Source of the DNA: a virus
Reading direction: 5' to 3' (one strand)
Length of the DNA stretch: 64,000 nucleotides
IMG/VR virus record: IMGVR_UViG_3300044837_000085
Coordinates: 32,001-96,000 of that record
Each line of letters starts with the position of its first letter. Within the stretch, counting starts at the first letter, position 1. Position numbers and translations under genes: made by a program. This document shows, one piece after another, positions 1-8,270 of this stretch. The notes below the pieces were generated by a model. It was given only the letters and a program-made list of their open reading frames with translations, was not told where the DNA came from and did not search any database.

Positions 1-64
1 TTCTGGCCCCAATGCTCAAAGCGGAGCGTTTCGTGGGTCCGCCGATTTGGAAGCGTTGTGCGAG

Positions 65-2776
65 TCATTCCGCCGCCTCCGAGTCGATAGGAGCGAATAG
101 GCTTCCTGGCTCGAACGGTGCTTTGTCTTTCCCGAGTTGCTTGACCATGTGACGGGAGCCCTCTTCCCGGCCCATAAACGCAGCCTCGATGCGCGCTTTG
201 GCGAGCGTGGCGTATTCCGGGTTCAGTTCTATTATCGTGCTGTTGCGCCCCAGCGTGGCCGCTACAAGGGCCGTAGTGCCGGAGCCGCCGAACGGATCTA
301 ATACCTTGGCCGGCTCCGGTTCATGTTCTGGGCAATCGCATGAGGGCGTCCACCCAGTAGTGACGGATCGTGCGGGGCTAACCATAGTACCGCTTGTGCC
401 AGTCCGCGTGCCGCGCTCTTCATTGCGCGCCGTCTTCCGAATAACCATCGCTGTTTTTTCGGTCTCACGGGACCAAGGTGAGCCGCAGTGTGGGCAGTTG
501 CCCGCTTCCGATGTGCCTGCCTTTATCAGCGGCTCGATCAACGCGACTGGGAAAGTATTGCCGGTAATGAAAGGCTTGCCAGCACGGCGCGCTACCCAGA
601 ATGTTGATTCAACAGAAGGGCACCAAACTGTACCGGAATATCGTTCCCTACCGATCGGCGTATGCACGCCATCTGCACTGCGCAAAGTGAGCCAGCGACC
701 ATCAGTAAGATATAAAACGAAACAGCCTTCTTTTTTCGGCGCAATATGGCCGCGCCAACCGAGGCGCATACCCATACCTTGGATGATGTCCAGAAAACCT
801 CGATCTTTCTGAACTACACAGCATCGACCGTCAGATCGGCGATGGCCGTCGCCGTCGATAACAGCGTCAACAAACGCTCGAATCTCTGAAATCGGCCATG
901 ATAGCCAAGACCACGATGCATCCTTGCGGGGGCTTGCCATGTAGAGAGACTCCGCCACGTCCCCTCTCACTGAAAAGACGATCTCAATACTTGGGCGACC
1001 GCGCCATTCACGCGAGCGTTTGCTTTCTTTGAAGTCCGCTCCTAATTCACGGAGCAATGAGCGGATCGCTTCAACCTTCTTGGGATTTGCGCTTAATGAT
1101 TGGTATATCCTGATCCATTGGCCGCGTTTTTTCTCGCCCTCCGTAAGATACCATCCAAGCAGCGCCGCAAAAGTCTCGCCGTATCCGGGAGATTCAGACA
1201 CAACCAAATTTGCAGAGACGGGAACCTGCATACCAGGTTTTAGTTTTCCGGCTTCAACGACGCCCTCGCCGCTAACTCTGCGACGGACTAGGCAGCGATG
1301 GTTCTCGGTTAGCCGCTGAGAACTGTCGCGCTTTTCGATAGCCACAAGTTCGCCGTCAAACGGGTAGCGATGGAATGTAGCGCGTTGCCAGAACGCAATA
1401 CCCTTATCCCTGTCGTAGGCCGCAATTTCGTCGCCGTCACTTAGCTCTGCGTGCAATCGCCAGCCCCGCGGCGTGAGCGCCTCAGTAGCATCATCAACAC
1501 AAGCAAAATGGGCCTCGCTGAAGCCTTGAGGATTGGCATCGATCGCCAGCGGCGTCCCGTCGCCGTCCGATATCAAGCCGAAAGGAATTTCGATCGACGA
1601 AAAGAAAAGGTCGGTGTTGCGGAAGTTGCGTTCATTGAGAACTTCCGTGGTGCTTTCGTGCCACGAATCTTTCGCTTTGATATTCGTCTCATCGCCTACC
1701 GATTTTGGCGTAACGCCGGGCTTGCGGACAACCGCCTTCATATTCCCGTTTGTCTTCGCCCCACCGTTGGCGCGCGCTGACCCGGTTTGCGAGGCCACGT
1801 TCTGCGCAACCCGCGAATTAGTTGATGCAGAAGCGGCCTTGCGCACCGCGTCCGCGTCATACCAATAACGTTCCGATTTCGTCAGCAGCGCCACTTGCTC
1901 CAGAGAGTTCGCCGGACGATCCGTGACTGATTCCGGCATGCCGTTCCGCTTGATCCACGGCAGCTTTGAGCGAATCCACCAACCGTCGTCCTGAAGCGCG
2001 ATAAATAGCCGCTCCGGGACCATGCACAAATCCTTCGCTTTGAGGTATCCGCCACCGCGCCAGCGCAGCCCATCGTCACGCAAGCCCCAACCACCAACGT
2101 CAACGTCATCCCTGTCTTCGCCTGCGGTTATGCGCTTGCCGTTAGCGACGATCCTGCCGGTATTTCCCGCCTGCCCACCTGATCCTTTATTGCCGCTCCT
2201 GCCGCGACGATCTCCAGATTCGTGATCCGGCACAAATATTGGTCCGACTGTCGAGAACGGTTTATCCCGGAAGGTGCGATCATCATCGCCCTTCAGTTTT
2301 GTGTCCGCCGCACTTCGGCCGTTCGGTGCCGTGGCGTAGCAGTCGCCGTAATTGATCCAACAGACGCCAGTCGGCTTAAGGACGCGGCGCACCTCACGAA
2401 AGACATCGACCATGACGGAGATATGCTCGGCAAGAGTCGACTCCATACCGATCTGTTCGTCGACATAGACGGCCTCACACTTTGAACAATGGCCACCAGT
2501 AAACTTCGTCATGTTGGCGTATGTGTCGCCGTTCTTGCCTGGGTTTCCCGGACCCTTGACAGAATTCGCCCATGGTGTGCGATCGGTGCCAACTCGATCG
2601 TGTTGGCAATCAACGTCTCCACCTTCCCACTTTCCAGTTCCGTAATTCCGAAGTCCCCAGTAGGGCGGCGAGGTGCAGACACAATCAAAATGATCGTCCG
2701 GCAACGTCTTGAGCATTGCTCGCACGTCCCCGAGAAGCATCGTAACCTTGCCGTTGAGAAAAGTTTCAGCGGTCAT
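65..2776 (-). CDS. Amino-DNA methyltransferase (N4-C/N6-A, beta class) containing an intein
   Basis: N-terminal TSPPY motif, C-terminal DPFGGSGTT SAM motif, HFA...TFP motif split by an intein; probable start MTAETFLNG. Confidence 0.93.
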   Translation of the reverse strand: MTAETFLNGKVTMLLGDVRAMLKTLPDDHFDCVCTSPPYWGLRNYGTGKWEGGDVDCQHDRVGTDRTPWANSVKGPGNPGKNGDTYANMTKFTGGHCSKCEAVYVDEQIGMESTLAEHISVMVDVFREVRRVLKPTGVCWINYGDCYATAPNGRSAADTKLKGDDDRTFRDKPFSTVGPIFVPDHESGDRRGRSGNKGSGGQAGNTGRIVANGKRITAGEDRDDVDVGGWGLRDDGLRWRGGGYLKAKDLCMVPERLFIALQDDGWWIRSKLPWIKRNGMPESVTDRPANSLEQVALLTKSERYWYDADAVRKAASASTNSRVAQNVASQTGSARANGGAKTNGNMKAVVRKPGVTPKSVGDETNIKAKDSWHESTTEVLNERNFRNTDLFFSSIEIPFGLISDGDGTPLAIDANPQGFSEAHFACVDDATEALTPRGWRLHAELSDGDEIAAYDRDKGIAFWQRATFHRYPFDGELVAIEKRDSSQRLTENHRCLVRRRVSGEGVVEAGKLKPGMQVPVSANLVVSESPGYGETFAALLGWYLTEGEKKRGQWIRIYQSLSANPKKVEAIRSLLRELGADFKESKRSREWRGRPSIEIVFSVRGDVAESLYMASPRKDASWSWLSWPISEIRAFVDAVIDGDGHRRSDGRCCVVQKDRGFLDIIQGMGMRLGWRGHIAPKKEGCFVLYLTDGRWLTLRSADGVHTPIGRERYSGTVWCPSVESTFWVARRAGKPFITGNTFPVALIEPLIKAGTSEAGNCPHCGSPWSRETEKTAMVIRKTARNEERGTRTGTSGTMVSPARSVTTGWTPSCDCPEHEPEPAKVLDPFGGSGTTALVAATLGRNSTIIELNPEYATLAKARIEAAFMGREEGSRHMVKQLGKDKAPFEPGSLFAPIDSEAAE
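557..1501 (-). mobile_element. Intein (315 aa) with LAGLIDADG homing endonuclease
   Basis: Begins CVDDATEALT, block B LTENHR, LAGLIDADG-like LLGWYLTEG and FVDAVIDGDG, ends VWCPSV...ITGN followed by Thr. Confidence 0.92.
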
Positions 2777-2982
2777 TCCGAAGCGGCCTCGCGCCAATAA
2801 ACCCATTTGAACGTAGACCCCTGAACCGTCTGCGCCCTCCGCTTGATCTTCCCTTCCTCGCTTAGTTTGTAGAGATTCTGACCGACTGTTTCTTCAGCCC
2901 AGCAGTCTAGTGTTCGCCATATCTCGCGAGTCGAGAGCGCGTTTGATTCTCCGAATGGCACATGAGGTGTGACGTCGATCAT
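2773..2982 (-). CDS. Small putative winged-helix DNA-binding protein
   Basis: LSTREIW...LYKLSEEGKIKR pattern; coupled to both neighbours by ATGA overlaps. Confidence 0.5.
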   Translation of the reverse strand: MIDVTPHVPFGESNALSTREIWRTLDCWAEETVGQNLYKLSEEGKIKRRAQTVQGSTFKWVYWREAASE

Positions 2983-4079
2983 GCCGCCACCGCCTTTCGC
3001 GTCTTCGATCCGCACGGCATGAGAACGTTGACCGCGCTCGGCTCCGATCGATCGACAATCCGCAGCGGCTCGCGCTCGCTCTTGATGTAGAGGTCGAGTT
3101 TTTCACCGCGCATCGACTTCAGGGCTTCGCTGAACTGCGCTGCGCGAAGGCAAACGAACTTACCCTCCGCAGATTCGCATTCGATTGTTTCGGCGCCGTC
3201 CGCAACGCCGGTTGCCGAGATTGATATCTCGTCAGCGCCAACTGAAATATCGATCAGGTCCGAGCCGCTGAAATCCCCTACCGCCCGAAGTCGCGTCAGG
3301 CATTCCAGCATCGCGTCCTTATCGACCGTGATGCATCCTTCGACAGCAGCGGGGATTGTGCGACGATAGGTCTCCGGAAATGTCGAGTCGATGATCTTCG
3401 AACTGTAGACGCGCCCTTCGGAACTGATCGAAATGATGCGGCTCGAGATCGTGAGTTCGCCGCCACCGATCTTGATAATTTCGTCCGCCGCAGTGCGTGG
3501 GATGATCGCGCCCACGAATCCCTTCGCTTCCAAGCCGGTCGAGAACCGCATCAGGAAGTTGCCGTTGGTCGCCACGGAGCAGACCTTGCCTTCGTCGCTG
3601 TGCAAGTAAAATCCCTGAAAACACAGCCGAGACTCCTTGACGTCGATCGTCGGGCGAGGTCGGACAAGCAGTTGTTCAAGGTCCGCGGAGGATACGGACA
3701 GCTTGAACCCATCCTCAGCGGTCAGTGCGTTCGGCATGTCGGCGGCTGGTAAAATCGGTAGCTTGTACCTGGATCGCCCCGACTTGATGATCGCGTCCTG
3801 ACCAATAACCTCGATCGCGACGCTCGCCGCCTTGGGCAGACCGGCAACCAGCCGAGCGAACGGCGCGCCTGGGATTGCACAGGCACCGGGCGCGGCGACT
3901 TCAGCTTCGATCGTCGCTTCGCTGGAAGAATCCAGATCGTGTCCGAGCAGAACAAGTTTGTCGTCTACTGCCTCGCACCGCACATGCTGCAAGATCGGAA
4001 TAACGGTATGCGGCTTGGTGCGGTCACAGGGGCCGCGAAGTGCGGTCGAGAGATCGCCCGCATTTACGGTGCATTTCAT
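2979..4079 (-). CDS. dnaN: DNA polymerase III beta sliding clamp homolog
   Basis: 366 aa; IPILQHV, GHDLD, VATNG, SKIIDSTFP and terminal VLMP motifs of beta clamps. Confidence 0.88.
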   Translation of the reverse strand: MKCTVNAGDLSTALRGPCDRTKPHTVIPILQHVRCEAVDDKLVLLGHDLDSSSEATIEAEVAAPGACAIPGAPFARLVAGLPKAASVAIEVIGQDAIIKSGRSRYKLPILPAADMPNALTAEDGFKLSVSSADLEQLLVRPRPTIDVKESRLCFQGFYLHSDEGKVCSVATNGNFLMRFSTGLEAKGFVGAIIPRTAADEIIKIGGGELTISSRIISISSEGRVYSSKIIDSTFPETYRRTIPAAVEGCITVDKDAMLECLTRLRAVGDFSGSDLIDISVGADEISISATGVADGAETIECESAEGKFVCLRAAQFSEALKSMRGEKLDLYIKSEREPLRIVDRSEPSAVNVLMPCGSKTRKAVAA

Positions 4080-4399
4080 GGCTTCCGCCCCACCGCATCA
4101 TGAAGTCTGACGATGGCTCGATTTGCTCTTTCGGACTGCGGGACGTCGAATTTCAGCGGGGCGACACGCTCGCATTCATCCAGGAATGCATGGATCGCTT
4201 CCTCTGCATGATCTTCGACGTCGTCTCCGGTATCTTCGAGTTCGATAATCTCGCCCTGAAGTTCCTCGATCCGCGCTTCCTTCTTGTCCAGATGGCTATC
4301 CGCGTCGACCAGCAGCTTTTGCAGCCGTGAAATCTCTTCATGACAGCGCGTCACGGTCTTCGGATATTCAACGTCGCTTTCGTCAAGCAAATAGCTCAT
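4076..4399 (-). CDS. Hypothetical acidic coiled-coil protein
   Basis: ORF translationally coupled within the operon. Confidence 0.6.
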   Translation of the reverse strand: MSYLLDESDVEYPKTVTRCHEEISRLQKLLVDADSHLDKKEARIEELQGEIIELEDTGDDVEDHAEEAIHAFLDECERVAPLKFDVPQSERANRAIVRLHDAVGRKP

Positions 4400-4641
4400 G
4401 CCGATACCTCCACAAGTCGATATCCCTTGCCGCGGACGTTGTTCACGTCGAAACCGTAGGGCCGAAGCTTCTTTCTCAGATTGCAGACCCAGACTTTGCG
4501 AGAGCCTTTATTGTGGTTCCTGCAGTGGGGAAGAATCTTTGGATAGGATTCGCGCAGATCGGTGAGTAGCCGCGCCTCAGCCGGCCGCAGACCGTAGACG
4601 CGGGCCGCGATGATCTCGCCTTCGTTGAGGAACGTCACCAT
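4396..4641 (-). CDS. Stand-alone OmpR/CtrA-type winged-helix DNA-binding domain
   Basis: KVWVCNLRKKL...NVRGKGYRL matches the Trans_reg_C recognition helix and wing; no receiver domain. Confidence 0.75.
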   Translation of the reverse strand: MVTFLNEGEIIAARVYGLRPAEARLLTDLRESYPKILPHCRNHNKGSRKVWVCNLRKKLRPYGFDVNNVRGKGYRLVEVSA

Positions 4642-5183
4642 CACGCAACGTTCCTTTGCGCTCTGCGATATTCCTGCGTTCGTAACTGAACGATCTGCGC
4701 TCGTTCTAGCTGTGTGCGCTTGATGGGATTGCGGACGATCTCCCAACAATGCGGGCAGTAGCTTTCGCCCTTTCGCGTTTCGTTACCGCATGCGAGATAG
4801 CCCGGTCCTGGCGGTTCGTCCGCGATATATCGACACTGGTTGGGCGACTCGTTCTTGAAGTCGCGAAGATCGGCAAACGGAATACGCAGATCGCCAACGT
4901 ATGGCGCTGGTTTGATGGGTGGAAAATCTGCCATCTTCTTTTCCTCATTGGGCGCCCGGTGGCGGTGGTTACGGTCGTAAAGTCTCTGGCGCTCGTTTCG
5001 TCTGCGCTGCAATTCCTCTTGGGGTAAGCGCGGCTTTGTCGCCCGGCTCGGGAGGTTAAGACGGCTGCATTTTCCTATTGCCGCATTCCTCGTGATCCCC
5101 ATTGCTGCTGCTATTTCGGACATGGACATGCCGGTCGCATGAAGGCGTTTTAGTTCTGCGGTTTTGTAGTCATTCCAAATCAT
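4641..5183 (-). CDS. gcrA: GcrA cell-cycle regulator homolog
   Basis: W...LKRLHATGMSMSEIAAAMGITRNAAIGKCSRL N-terminus; CRYI...ACG...SYCPHC C-terminal domain. Confidence 0.9.
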   Translation of the reverse strand: MIWNDYKTAELKRLHATGMSMSEIAAAMGITRNAAIGKCSRLNLPSRATKPRLPQEELQRRRNERQRLYDRNHRHRAPNEEKKMADFPPIKPAPYVGDLRIPFADLRDFKNESPNQCRYIADEPPGPGYLACGNETRKGESYCPHCWEIVRNPIKRTQLERAQIVQLRTQEYRRAQRNVA

Positions 5184-5725
5184 GCCACCCTCGCGAATTC
5201 GCCAAAGTGCTCATGAGCCGCGCGGACATATGCGGAGTGCGCCTCTTCCGCAGTATGGAAGTAGCCCAGGAAAATGAGACGCTTGTTGCCGTTCTCGTTG
5301 ATCTTTATTTGACTTCGCCACTTCATGCCTTTGCGACAGGCGTGATAGAACGCGCCCTTCAATCCGGCGCGATTGTTCGATTGAGCTCCCCTGTTCTGCT
5401 TTTGCTCGGAAGATGTCGCTATCCGGAGGTTGTCGATGGCATTATTGGAAGGATCGTTATCCTTGTGATCTATTTCGGCGCCGCCGATCTGGATTCCATG
5501 AATATAAATCCAAGCTAGCCGATGCGCGGCAAACTGCCCAAGTCCTTTAACGCCAATGTAAATATAACCAAGCCGCCTCTTGGTCCCTGCGATATCTCCA
5601 GCCTTTCTCTTGCCGCCGCGCGTATCATTCTTCCAGCGGAATATTCCTGTCGCGTGATCGTAGCTAAACAGTTCGTGCAACAGCGCTTGGTTGGGAAGCT
5701 TACGCAATCGACCCTCCAAGCTCAC
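5180..5725 (-). CDS. HNH endonuclease with AP2-like domain
   Basis: [37 protein letters not shown]. Confidence 0.9.
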
Positions 5726-6953
5726 GGGTTATCGCTTCGACATCGGCATTAAGCTGAGCGTCAATTCTGCGCAGTTCGCTTATCTTTTTAGCGCCGTGAT
5801 AAACCGAACTGTGATCTCTTCCGCCGAACCTGCGGCCAATCTCCGGCAGAGACTTGAGGGTCAGCACCTTCGAAAGATAATAACCAACTTGGCGCGGCCT
5901 CACGACGGCTGCGGTACGTCGCGCCGACAGAATGTCGGAACGAGTCACGCCATAATGCCGGGCGCAAGCTACCTGTATTTCGTCGATCCTGATCTTGCGG
6001 GGTTCCGTTGGAAGTATCAGATCGCGTATTTCGCGCTCCGCCATATCCAATGTGATGACGCATTCATTGAGTTTGCTTTGAGCCAAAAGCCGATTGACTG
6101 CGGCCTCGATGTCGCGCCCGCATTTGACAACCGCGCCTACAATGAATTCCCGAACCGTATCCGGGATATCAAACGTCGGATGATAGAGCCGCGCAGCCTC
6201 GATCCGATGCTGCAGAATGTCTATCCGTTGCTCCTCAGCCGGCCTTCCGATCTCAACGACAAGGCCAGCGACGAGGCGCGATCTGGTCCTTTCATCCAGT
6301 ATCTCAAGATCGCTCGGCAAACGGTCGGCGGCTAGGACAACTTGTCTGCCACCATCGAGCGCGGCGTTTACCGTATGACAGAACTCGGCATGGGTCGGTT
6401 TGCCCTGCAGGAACTGGAGGTCGTCGATGATAAGCACGTCAAGACAGCGAAGCGAATGTTTGAACTCCACCGCCGCTTGCCGCTTGATCGAGTCAAAGAA
6501 GCTGTAGACGAATTTTTCAGCCGTGAGATAAAGCACCTTGCGGTCTTCGCAATTTCCCGCCAGCGCGATTGCTTGGAGTAGATGTGTTTTGCCGAGCCCT
6601 ACGCCAGCATGAATGTAGAGCGGATTGAACATGACCGGATCGCCACGGCGTCCGTCAGCGATCTGACGGGCTGCGGCATGGGCAAGATTGTTGCTGCGAC
6701 CAATTGAAAATCCGGCGAAGGTGAGCCGCGGATCAAGCGATGACCCTCCCAGGTCATGATGCGCCTTGGCGTCGGCCATCGGATCTTTCGCACGGACGAT
6801 CGCGGCCTTCGGCACAGGGATATCCAGCATGACGGTTGCTTTCCGCGGTGAATTGAAAAGACGGTCTCGGCGGTCCTTGCGCGCAGCGATGCGTTCCGTG
6901 AGCGGGACGTCGAGATAGGGGTCGTGCTGAACGAGCATCGCAATTGCTTCCAT
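5700..6953 (-). CDS. dnaA: DnaA homolog (AAA+ domain III and DNA-binding domain IV, no canonical domain I)
   Basis: [18 protein letters not shown] Walker [10 protein letters not shown] Walker [22 protein letters not shown]. Confidence 0.93.
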
Positions 6954-7111
6954 TTGAAAATCTCTCCCTACTCACAATGTCCGAAACCGGACAAACCAAA
7001 TTCCGGAGCAAAAGCCAGCGTTCATCGGGCCGGTTCCCGATTTTTCTTCCAGCCTCAGAAATCCCGCTGAGGCCCGCACTGTTAGGATTGTGATGCTACT
7101 GGAACTAAAAC

Positions 7112-7516
7112 TTAGCCAACCGTGGTCTTGTTCTGCGCTTCCGCCGTTTCATGTTCGGCAATCCGTCGCTTAACTTCCGTCATCGCCGCAGCGCTTATCA
7201 GTTTGAACTGAAGTGGAGCGAGCATCGTCCTTGCGCAGTCGATAAAGGTTTCCTCGAAGCCGCGAATGGCCTGACGCCGCAGGTGAGCGCGCTGGCGCAG
7301 TTCGCTAATCTCGGTCTGCATGGCAAGTTTTCGCAGACCGAGTTCTTTCTTCTCGCTACGCCCCGCGTTTTTAATTCTATCCTCAAGGATCGAAAGTCCC
7401 TCCTTCAACTGTCGCAGTTGCTCTTCTGAAGACAGTTGCTCGGTTCCATTCACCCAATCTCTTGGGGTTCCCTGGTGCAGAACTTTTTGGCGTCTGTCGG
7501 ATGCAACCTTGTACAT
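7112..7516 (-). CDS. Hypothetical coiled-coil protein
   Basis: 134-aa ORF in operon orientation. Confidence 0.55.
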   Translation of the reverse strand: MYKVASDRRQKVLHQGTPRDWVNGTEQLSSEEQLRQLKEGLSILEDRIKNAGRSEKKELGLRKLAMQTEISELRQRAHLRRQAIRGFEETFIDCARTMLAPLQFKLISAAAMTEVKRRIAEHETAEAQNKTTVG

Positions 7517-7528
7517 TTAGTGCAGACC

Positions 7529-7951
7529 CTATTTCGCTGTAACGTGATCGACGTTATCCAGACAGTCCTTCAACGGTCGCGCGGCTTGCTGGATCTTCCG
7601 TCGCTCGTTCGGTGTGAAGACGCCATCCATCGCCGCCTCGAGAACGGTGAATGCAAAGTGCCCGGCCGCCCTAGAGAATTCCGCGATGATGTGGAAGACG
7701 CTCGCTACCGGCGCCGGATTGACCTTGCGAGCAATCAAATCGAACCCGCTTTCGCGCGCCAGTTCCTTGAGGAAGAAATTGCCCGATGCCCGATCAAGAT
7801 CAACCCAATGGTCAATCGGGATGTATCGCGTGTTGTCTGGGTTGCACCAATAGCTCAACTCGGTTTCGGAAACGCCAAGCATCTTCGAGACGTCGTGGCG
7901 GCTTCCCGTGCGCTCAATCGCATGGGCTGTGAGTTCTTTGAGGTCGGACAT
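7529..7951 (-). CDS. Putative CII-like phage regulatory protein
   Basis: HTH (VSKMLGVSETELSYW) and DGVFTPNE motif; GGGAGG RBS; lies downstream of cro. Confidence 0.6.
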   Translation of the reverse strand: MSDLKELTAHAIERTGSRHDVSKMLGVSETELSYWCNPDNTRYIPIDHWVDLDRASGNFFLKELARESGFDLIARKVNPAPVASVFHIIAEFSRAAGHFAFTVLEAAMDGVFTPNERRKIQQAARPLKDCLDNVDHVTAK

Positions 7952-8270
7952 TTTACAAAACCTCCCCGGTTAAAACATTCCATTTATGTTCGCTATCGCA
8001 ATAAACGTGCAGAAAATTCAGCGCGGGCACATCATCCAGGCATTAAAGGAGGTGCCTTATGTTGGATTTTTGCCTGCTCTCGATTATCGGAATTAGCCTG
8101 ATCGCCGCCGCGCTTGCGGGACATGGCATTCTGTGTGAGATCAAGCGCCGTGACATTGCTGTCCATGTCGCGCTGCATCCGGATACGCGCAGCACGAATT
8201 TCGATGAGGATGACGCCGATCATGCATGATGCGATGAAAAGCAGCGCCGCTCCTATGTTGGGCTGCCACG

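Follow-up and report, generated by a model that had tools for sequence, protein, structure and literature searches.

Look-alikes of the regulators of the alphaproteobacterial cell cycle are already known from phages as single elements, the published cases being the GcrA of phiCbK, the CtrA of RDJL Phi1 and the methylase of PhiLM21. To our knowledge, the function of such single look-alikes in alphaproteobacterial phages has never been tested. Caulobacter phage phiCbK carries the GcrA homologue gp222, which was proposed to alter the host replicative state (Gill et al. 2012, PMC3556154). In roseophage RDJL Phi1, a receiver-less CtrA gene adjoins a homologue of GafA with a domain like the DNA-binding domain of DnaA; GafA itself, from the Rhodobacter gene transfer agent, has such a domain and works with CtrA and RNA polymerase (Fogg 2019, PMC6363796). 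Sinorhizobium phage PhiLM21 is credited with a CcrM-like methylase (Dziewit 2014, as cited in PMC12429752), and the genes named for phiLM21-like prophages include GcrA and DnaA (PMC12429752). Phages have also been described to contain host CtrA sites and, in the case of Sinorhizobium phages, CcrM analogues (PMC9437464). The present analysis concerns an operon in which a DnaA-like protein, a GcrA-like protein and a probable relative of CtrA are encoded together with a sliding clamp and a DNA methylase. The operon lies in a 64,000-nucleotide stretch of viral DNA (the window), which comprises bases 32001-96000 of the 104,614-base pair (bp) IMG/VR record IMGVR_UViG_3300044837_000085 (G000).

No description was found of a phage DnaA that has the AAA+ motor, lacks domain I and carries a changed DNA-reading helix. 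The same is true of a conserved pair that several uncultured phages share, in which a gene for a DnaA-type DNA-binding protein adjoins a GcrA paralogue, and of a family of minimal CtrA-related winged helices of about 80 amino acids (aa). The presence of the long-form DnaA, the DnaA(IV)-GcrA pair and the minimal CtrA-related protein in one coupled operon is also new. The operon offers a compact and clearly delimited case in which reprogramming of the host can be weighed against recruitment of host regulators for the phage's own origin and promoters.

The operon occupies window positions 65-7951 on the minus strand and is translationally coupled and early. In order of transcription, it encodes a CII-like regulator, a 134-aa protein, the DnaA-like protein, an HNH endonuclease, the GcrA-like protein, an 81-aa winged helix, a coiled-coil protein, DnaN, a 69-aa protein and the methylase. 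An earlier note on this DNA had named the last eight of these as a set of overlapping or coupled genes; profile matches located all eight on the minus strand in the order claimed, and the claim of coupling is borne out by the junctions read off the sequence. Six successive junctions overlap by 4 nucleotides (nt; ATGA) or 1 nt, such that gcrA, the winged-helix gene, the coiled-coil gene, dnaN, the small gene and the methylase gene each begin within the stop codon of the gene before, by 1 or 4 nt. The small 69-aa gene has the ATGA overlap on both sides, and the start of the HNH gene overlaps the end of dnaA by 26 nt. These overlaps place the start of the winged helix at ATG 4641 (81 aa) rather than at TTG 4749, give the small protein a length of 69 aa (2773-2982) and make 2776 the most likely start of the methylase. 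The extent of the operon had been drawn too narrowly, as it starts earlier, with the CII-like gene at 7951, and continues downstream of the methylase with a 168-aa gene, DUF3310 and ThyX. With a CII-like gene upstream and DUF3310 and ThyX downstream, the locus can be placed as the early operon on the cII side of a phage of temperate type. No GenBank phage was matched by the operon in megablast, and in IMG/VR nothing useful came from pattern scans based on DnaA, GcrA, P0007 and the winged helix.

The DnaA-like protein (417 aa, 5700-6953, minus strand) scored 370.9 bits against the equivalog cut-off of 343.9 for TIGR00362, and matched Bac_DnaA (2.5e-50) and Bac_DnaA_C (1.1e-23). In a scan of one genome per prokaryote species, its best 80 matches were all chromosomal DnaA proteins of Bradyrhizobium, Nitrobacter, Afipia, Tardiphaga and Rhodopseudomonas, with 60-65% identity over residues ~60-412. 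Because the nearest DnaA proteins all belong to the Bradyrhizobium/Nitrobacter family, the host is placed there as well; the data point to a phage of about 105 kilobases (kb) that infects a soil bacterium of that family. The virus record has a completeness of 100% by CheckV and a GC content of about 55%.

Like bacterial DnaA (TIGR00362), the protein has domains III and IV, which are 63-65% identical to those of Nitrobacteraceae DnaA (Bradyrhizobium, Nitrobacter and Afipia). The AAA+ domain III is complete, with the Walker A motif GVGLGKTHL and the Walker B motif LIIDDLQ, and is 66-68% identical to the host domain III. However, domain I is absent, the first ~75 residues of the host protein having no counterpart in the alignment, and the signature helix of domain IV is altered. 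It reads DHSSV where the host has DHTTV, so that the canonical DHTTV.HA is lost, while DHTTVLHAVRK is present in all five host genomes compared and in the phage relative L126. The N-terminal ~62 aa are common only to the phage relative L133, and both the N-terminus and domain IV are nearest to phage relatives (48% and 65% in L133, respectively, and about 62-65% in L132). A GYYLS motif and a C-terminal LGGS tail are likewise common to the window protein and to L132/L133.

The composition of dnaA is also phage-like. Its GC content at third codon positions is 0.60 vs 0.885 for host dnaA, and this holds for domain III. The possibility was considered that domain III is a recent capture from the host, which was ruled out by the phage-like composition and a host identity of only 66%. 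The gene reads as an old resident of the phage lineage that has retained the AAA+ domain, which was lost in most relatives. In L133 (8732-9469) the DnaA-like protein consists of the phage-specific N-terminus and domain IV, without an AAA+ domain; this short form and the long form in the window suggest that a captured dnaA was reduced step by step in a single phage lineage.

Full-length DnaA matches in GenBank phages were almost all in short or evidently host-contaminated records, and genuine rhizobial and Bradyrhizobium phages in GenBank carry only domain IV proteins. A DnaA-domain-IV gene stands at the initiator position in Bradyrhizobium phage ppBeUSDA76-2 and in L126. The phage proteins that consist of domain IV only, such as those of ppBeUSDA76-2 and RHph_N28_2, share the operon position of the window protein but differ from it in that the latter keeps the AAA+ domain.

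The GcrA-like protein (180 aa, 4641-5183, minus strand) matched PF07750 with 72.2 bits against a cut-off of 26.9, over profile positions 1-148 of 155. On the NCBIfam GcrA equivalog NF050816 it remained below the cut-off (47.5 vs 280 bits), and its identity to GcrA from five genomes of the host family is 27-30%. When aligned with host GcrA, the protein was found to retain the N-terminal helix-turn-helix (HTH) and the C-terminal Cys block. It belongs to a subfamily with 23 relatives at 32-65% identity, which is rare in host genomes, only one of 301 family genomes giving a match at E <= 1e-20. A tblastn search of GenBank phages with the protein gave no match at E <= 1e-3. Like phiCbK gp222, it is a phage-encoded member of PF07750; it differs from gp222 in belonging to another subfamily with a C-terminal extension of about 25 aa, and in lying in a temperate-type early operon, always directly behind a DnaA-domain-IV gene. 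In chromosomes of Bradyrhizobium (G001:C1:666735-668146) and Nitrobacter (G003:C25:62848-64288), the cellular gcrA has as its neighbour, on the other strand, a gene for a PhoB-like response regulator of OmpR type.

Four further loci, L131-L134, were found through the GcrA subfamily. L131 has CII, DnaA-IV, GcrA, a 123-aa protein and an MT-A70 methylase. L132 has DnaA-IV, GcrA and a winged helix with 60% identity and the same ATGA overlap, after which the contig ends. L133 carries the N-terminus and DnaA-IV, an HNH gene, GcrA, DUF5131 and, further on, an N6_N4 methylase; L134 carries DnaA-IV, GcrA, DUF5131 and, further on, an N6_N4 methylase. The DnaA(IV) gene is thus directly upstream of the GcrA gene in all four other contigs and, with the window, in 5/5 loci, an HNH gene occupying the junction in two. 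A DNA amino-methylase follows downstream in the four loci that are long enough, its family varying from locus to locus; the methylases of the relatives are non-orthologous, being of MT-A70, DPPY, SPPF and SPPY types. Another relative, L126 in the complete 46.8-kb record G006, has a CII-like gene, a 244-aa DnaA-domain-IV protein, a 116-aa protein, a coiled-coil protein (52%), DnaN (45%) and DUF6378, with a C5-methylase-like gene further on. Neither GcrA nor the winged helix was found anywhere in the complete record G006.

Judged by these gene orders, what is conserved at the core is the pair of a GcrA paralogue and, directly upstream of it, a gene for a DnaA-type DNA-binding protein, and the winged helix and DnaN are variable additions. 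As the DnaA(IV)-GcrA arrangement recurs in four independent contigs, it is more than chance by the same comparison. The co-linear set, which the earlier note had singled out as the unusual part, therefore stands for the DnaA(IV)-GcrA pair and does not extend to the winged helix, which is present in one relative only, or to the methylases, which differ. With respect to whether the genes co-occur in relatives at all, the pair recurs while G006 has neither GcrA nor the winged helix.

The 81-aa winged helix (4396-4641, minus strand) had been described as a stand-alone regulator of OmpR/CtrA type. On its own, it matched Trans_reg_C at E 0.001-0.002 only. An exhaustive HMMER search gathered a family of 16 clusters, mostly proteins of ~80 aa, the other 15 members being singletons on short contigs. 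Trans_reg_C was matched by 12 of 13 family members, and the family profile matched PhoB-family DNA-binding domains in the PDB, best at 2.5e-11. The AlphaFold (AF2) model made from the alignment had a predicted local distance difference test score (pLDDT) of 90.1, compared with 46.7 for the single-sequence fold, and the top Foldseek matches of the model were all OmpR/PhoB DNA-binding domains (SaeR, ArlR, AdeR, PhoB; template modelling (TM) score ~0.65). By profile and predicted structure, the protein is an OmpR/PhoB-type effector domain. It has no receiver domain with a phospho-acceptor Asp, its 81 aa being taken up by the effector domain only. No match to the family profile was found among proteins of at least 250 aa (above CtrA size), and tblastn of the winged helix against GenBank phages gave none.

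The relation of this family to CtrA was evaluated against CtrA and 19 other OmpR-type regulators from one complete Bradyrhizobium genome, a single-genome outgroup. The NCBIfam models gave no preference for CtrA, the CtrA model matching 3 of 13 family members and not the window protein. Among the 20 regulators, only CtrA has the Cys recognition helix of the family (V-x-[IV]-C-x-LRKKL in the family vs FICKLRKKL), and CtrA was the top hhalign match, by a small margin (55.0 vs 51.2). In a first tree with host CtrA alone, a CtrA clade was not recovered and not rejected (approximately unbiased test, p 0.41), and the same was true when the core family was combined with host CtrA alone (p 0.31). The addition of the phage CtrA genes RDJL Phi1 gp37 and RcSalem gp58 broke the long branch. 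In the resulting tree, 15 family members, CtrA and both phage proteins were split from the 19 regulators with support of 97/95, and RcSalem gp58 was sister to the winged-helix family (94/86). The support was 85/96 when the distant members, which are more like CtrA, were left out and the core family alone was used. Within the limits of this sample, the winged helix probably descends from CtrA.

The assignment to CtrA consequently depends on the sampling: the protein groups with CtrA once phage CtrA is added, and this grouping is not recovered with host CtrA alone. The claim of a stand-alone CtrA-type protein is upheld in fold, is likely by the tree that includes phage CtrA, and has to be qualified at the DNA-reading surface. 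The alignment of the window protein with CtrA is confined to helix 3 and the wing (38% over 32 columns); the protein has no N-terminal beta-sheet and has a shorter loop between helices 2 and 3. Its recognition helix and wing read SRKVWVCN...VRGKGY, compared with IIDVFICK...VWGRGY in CtrA, and this divergence makes binding to CtrA boxes doubtful. TTAA-N7-TTAA has no sites in the 104.6-kb phage, where 0.2 are expected. The distant metagenomic members P0018 and P0020 keep a CtrA-like recognition helix and wing, IVDVWICKLRKKI ... IWGEGY, and may be truer mimics of CtrA than the window protein.

The closest described proteins are RDJL Phi1 gp37 and RcSalem gp58 (Fogg 2019, PMC6363796; Huang 2011). 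They are receiver-less CtrA effectors that group with the window family in the tree, and gp37, like the window protein, is encoded near a protein with a DnaA-type DNA-binding domain. They differ in that the RDJL Phi1 and Rhodobacter phage proteins are 45-58% identical to the DNA-binding domain of CtrA, the window protein reaching 38% over its 32 aligned columns. In Rhodobacter phage RcSalem (L137 2638-6207), gp58 lies a few genes upstream of ThyX-like and DNA methylase genes, a neighbourhood as in the window.

The last of the ten genes encodes a beta-class N6/N4 DNA methylase (65-2776, minus strand), which matched N6_N4_Mtase (6.2e-29) in two stretches and phrog_67 (1.2e-45). The motifs follow the beta-class order: in the 913-aa open reading frame (ORF), SPPY occupies residues 46-49 and DPFGGSG lies close to the C-terminus. 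The earlier note had placed the enzyme at the position of CcrM in a circuit while cautioning that, with SPPY, it was not demonstrably CcrM. The caution was justified and the counterpart role falls. The methylase scored 57.9 bits against a cut-off of 830 for the CcrM equivalog NF050803, a model on which host CcrM scored 608-615, and in BLASTP with host CcrM only the catalytic and S-adenosylmethionine motifs aligned. CcrM was ruled out by this score, by similarity at the level of motifs only and by SPPY in place of DPPY. The extein matched orphan methylases in 240 phage records, and the family also occurs in actinophages, cyanophages and archaeal viruses. By these matches, the enzyme is a common phage orphan methylase and not CcrM. 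It resembles CcrM and the PhiLM21 methylase in being beta-class (motif IV before motif I), in coming from an alphaproteobacterial phage and in lying near a GcrA homologue; it differs in having SPPY rather than DPPY, in belonging to another, widespread orphan family and in carrying an intein.

The methylase gene named by the earlier note is present with its SPPY motif, but the intein had been overlooked. This LAGLIDADG intein of 315 aa (557-1501, minus strand) is inserted within the methylase ORF at HFA|TFP and runs from Cys1 to Gly-Asn, followed by Thr+1. Its excision restores HFATFP and would leave a predicted mature enzyme of ~588 aa. It bears two LAGLIDADG-like blocks and matched LAGLIDADG_3 at 4.3e-4; a PDB sequence search with the intein gave no match. 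The penultimate intein residue is Gly, not His. Some active inteins are without a penultimate His. By tblastn, the intein is 32-34% identical over its full length to inserts in actinophage methylases (Dorothy gp75, Bobi, Lilac and others). The Dorothy match spans 981 nt, or 327 aa, and the intein of the Dorothy methylase has been reported as 327 aa (PMC9957025). The actinophage methylase intein (PMC9957025; Kelley 2016, PMC5050341) is likewise a LAGLIDADG intein in the same methylase family, whereas the window copy is in an alphaproteobacterial phage and has the penultimate Gly.

Taken together, we lean, at somewhat better than even confidence, towards reading the operon as a phage replication and transcription module made of long-domesticated host regulators, which would act mainly on phage DNA. 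The phage-like composition of dnaA, the features that it has in common with phage relatives and the ~30% identity of GcrA and DnaN to the host copies argue for long residence in the phage lineage. The cII-first position favours the module, and so does the order CII, DnaA(IV), [HNH], GcrA, methylase, which recurs in L131, L133 and L134. No match to DnaB_C, DNA_pol_A or DNA_pol3_alpha was found in the phage record; without a DnaB-type helicase, a family A polymerase or a polymerase III (Pol III) alpha subunit, the phage must use the host replisome.

In this module, the DnaA-like protein would bind phage sites (the origin, promoters or both) and would recruit the replisome of the host, for which it may form joint assemblies with host DnaA by way of the AAA+ domain. 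The phage clamp and its coupled coiled-coil partner would feed host Pol III. The GcrA-like protein would bind host sigma-70 RNA polymerase and turn on later phage promoters, and it may read the marks of the operon's own methylase, which could also shield the phage DNA from restriction. The receiver-less winged helix would serve as a phage regulator whose DNA binding is free of control by phosphorylation. The HNH gene and the intein would be selfish passengers. By analogy only, such an operon would follow the order logic of the lambda early right operon (cII - O - P - nin genes - Q), in which a regulator, a replication gene, DNA enzymes and a polymerase-reprogramming factor succeed one another; unlike lambda, it holds no homologue of O, P or Q, and their roles would be taken by copies of cell-cycle proteins of the host.

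Several points weigh against the module. Every functional step is one that we infer. The absence of domain I means that the known DnaA route of helicase loading is missing. No origin or shared promoter motif was found in or near the operon, a search there for iterons and clusters of DnaA boxes gave only chance-like two-copy repeats, and intergenic GANTC is only mildly enriched (53 vs 40 expected, with a rough gene map). Furthermore, methylases are common in phage early regions and are non-orthologous in the relatives, so the link between GcrA and the methylase may be coincidence.

The alternative that survives best, although doubtful, is that the DnaA-like protein and the domain-IV proteins of its relatives are GafA-like transcription factors, and that the trio forms a cascade for late-gene activation. 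The RDJL Phi1 pair of a GafA homologue and a receiver-less CtrA is the precedent (PMC6363796). In most relatives only domain IV is left, a domain unable to open an origin, and the DnaA-type gene is always coupled to a homologue of a sigma-70 cofactor. However, the window protein has a complete AAA+ domain with both Walker motifs and passes the DnaA equivalog cut-off, the N-terminal DnaA-like domain and sigma-like C-terminus of GafA are not seen in it, and the similarity of RDJL gp38 to the window DnaA is insignificant (E 0.16). Moreover, no other initiator candidate was identified in the phage, the whole genome not having been screened.

It is unlikely that the proteins act mainly on host targets and override the host cell cycle, so that a phage reliant on the replisome of its host would find the cell competent for replication. 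The GcrA-like protein would then turn on the S-phase regulon, the CtrA-like protein would compete at CtrA boxes and, for example, relieve or impose a block at oriC, the DnaA-like protein would force or poison initiation at oriC, and the methylase would reset methylation. All three regulators do have host counterparts, the winged helix is CtrA-related, and, with no helicase or polymerase gene detected, the phage relies on a host replisome that is active. The GcrA of phiCbK has been interpreted in this way (PMC3556154), phages of these hosts are known to track CtrA (PMC9437464), and a DnaA with AAA+ but without domain I has the architecture expected of a dominant-negative partner. Several differences speak against an override. 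The DnaA signature helix departs from the otherwise invariant one of the host, the recognition helix and wing of the winged-helix protein have residues other than those of CtrA, identity between the GcrA-like protein and host GcrA is no more than 27-30%, and the methylase is not CcrM; in addition, the set is not kept together in the relatives.

It is quite unlikely that the cluster is a mosaic of accessory genes, each acquired on its own and functionally unconnected, which would resemble a circuit only because alphaproteobacterial phages often take up genes of this sort. A mosaic would account for G006, which has CII-like, DnaA-IV, coiled-coil and DnaN genes but no GcrA or winged helix, for the non-orthologous methylases and for the unequal distances to the host copies (65% for DnaA, 30% for GcrA and DnaN). 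On the other hand, DnaA(IV) is directly upstream of GcrA in every one of the five loci, HNH is at the same junction in two, the ATGA-coupled pair of GcrA and winged helix is also present in L132, and six successive translational overlaps run through the window operon. The repeated DnaA(IV)-GcrA adjacency in particular makes a pure mosaic less likely. Least probable, and a long shot, is a self-contained, phosphorylation-independent shadow cell-cycle circuit, carried by a lineage of temperate phages of Bradyrhizobium-type bacteria and made up of the DnaA without domain I, the GcrA paralogue, the minimal CtrA-derived domain and the methylase in one coupled operon, that locks the cell in a replication-competent state, with the DnaA-like protein co-assembling with host DnaA and the CtrA-like protein displacing CtrA.

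Among the other products of the putative replication and transcription module, DnaN (366 aa, 2979-4079, minus strand) has the three beta-clamp domains PF00712, PF02767 and PF02768 in order and matched phrog_947 at 2.1e-45. It remained below the TIGR00663 cut-off (127.1 vs 137.65), is ~29-30% identical to host DnaN and 45% identical to the L126 copy, and most resembles the clamps of rhizobial phages such as 16-3. By these comparisons it is a diverged phage-type clamp. The gene before it (4076-4399, minus strand) encodes a 107-aa acidic coiled-coil protein with weak coiled-coil Pfam matches. An acidic coiled-coil gene is coupled to dnaN both in the window and in L126, where it lies at 7825-8001 directly before dnaN (52% identity over 64 aa), and its product may be a clamp partner.

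The first gene of the operon (7529-7951, minus strand) encodes the CII-like regulator, which matched PF06892 Phage_CP76 at 8e-07, with 29.5 bits against a cut-off of 26. Its L126 counterpart is 37% identical and occupies the same place, and a CP76 gene precedes DnaA-IV in L131. Upstream is a divergent intergenic region (7952-8058), across which a hydrophobic 56-aa ORF (8059-8229, plus strand) diverges from the cII operon. The ORF between cII and dnaA (7112-7516, minus strand) encodes a 134-aa protein with no Pfam match and is separated from dnaA by a 158-nt spacer that bears two hairpins.

The gene between dnaA and gcrA (5180-5725, minus strand) encodes a free-standing HNH homing endonuclease, with matches to HNH_3 (2e-13) and phrog_99 (6.5e-55). 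A copy with 61% identity is at the same DnaA-IV/GcrA junction in L133 (9462-9980), and the shared junction could reflect common descent or homing to one site. The 69-aa protein (2773-2982, minus strand) gave a weak Pfam match to BLACT_WH (0.0069), and an ESM Atlas structure search related it to HTH domains of FUR and IclR type at TM 0.77-0.78. A winged-helix-like fold is a lead only for this protein.

Binding sites for the regulators were looked for across the phage genome. No perfect DnaA box was found in it, and a scan for sigma-70 promoters returned fewer than the shuffled expectation. GANTC is depleted genome-wide, with 340 sites vs 504 +/- 21 expected under a second-order Markov model (z = -7.8), and the GcrA-type motif YGAKTCK is depleted as well (68 vs 154). 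Two strand-polarised repeats lie between G000 positions 5,500 and 17,000, before the window. The first, TACGRCTGATT, occurs in 8 exact copies, all on the plus strand and in pairs 25-27 bp apart. GANTC as a regular part of this motif was ruled out, since it is present in only 2 of 9 copies. The second repeat, GGGGCCAGA, has 11 copies on the plus strand and 2 on the minus strand, and one copy of a repeat motif lies at window 2-10 on the minus strand. By their polarity and position, often just upstream of plus-strand genes, these repeats are candidate sites for a phage promoter or regulator.

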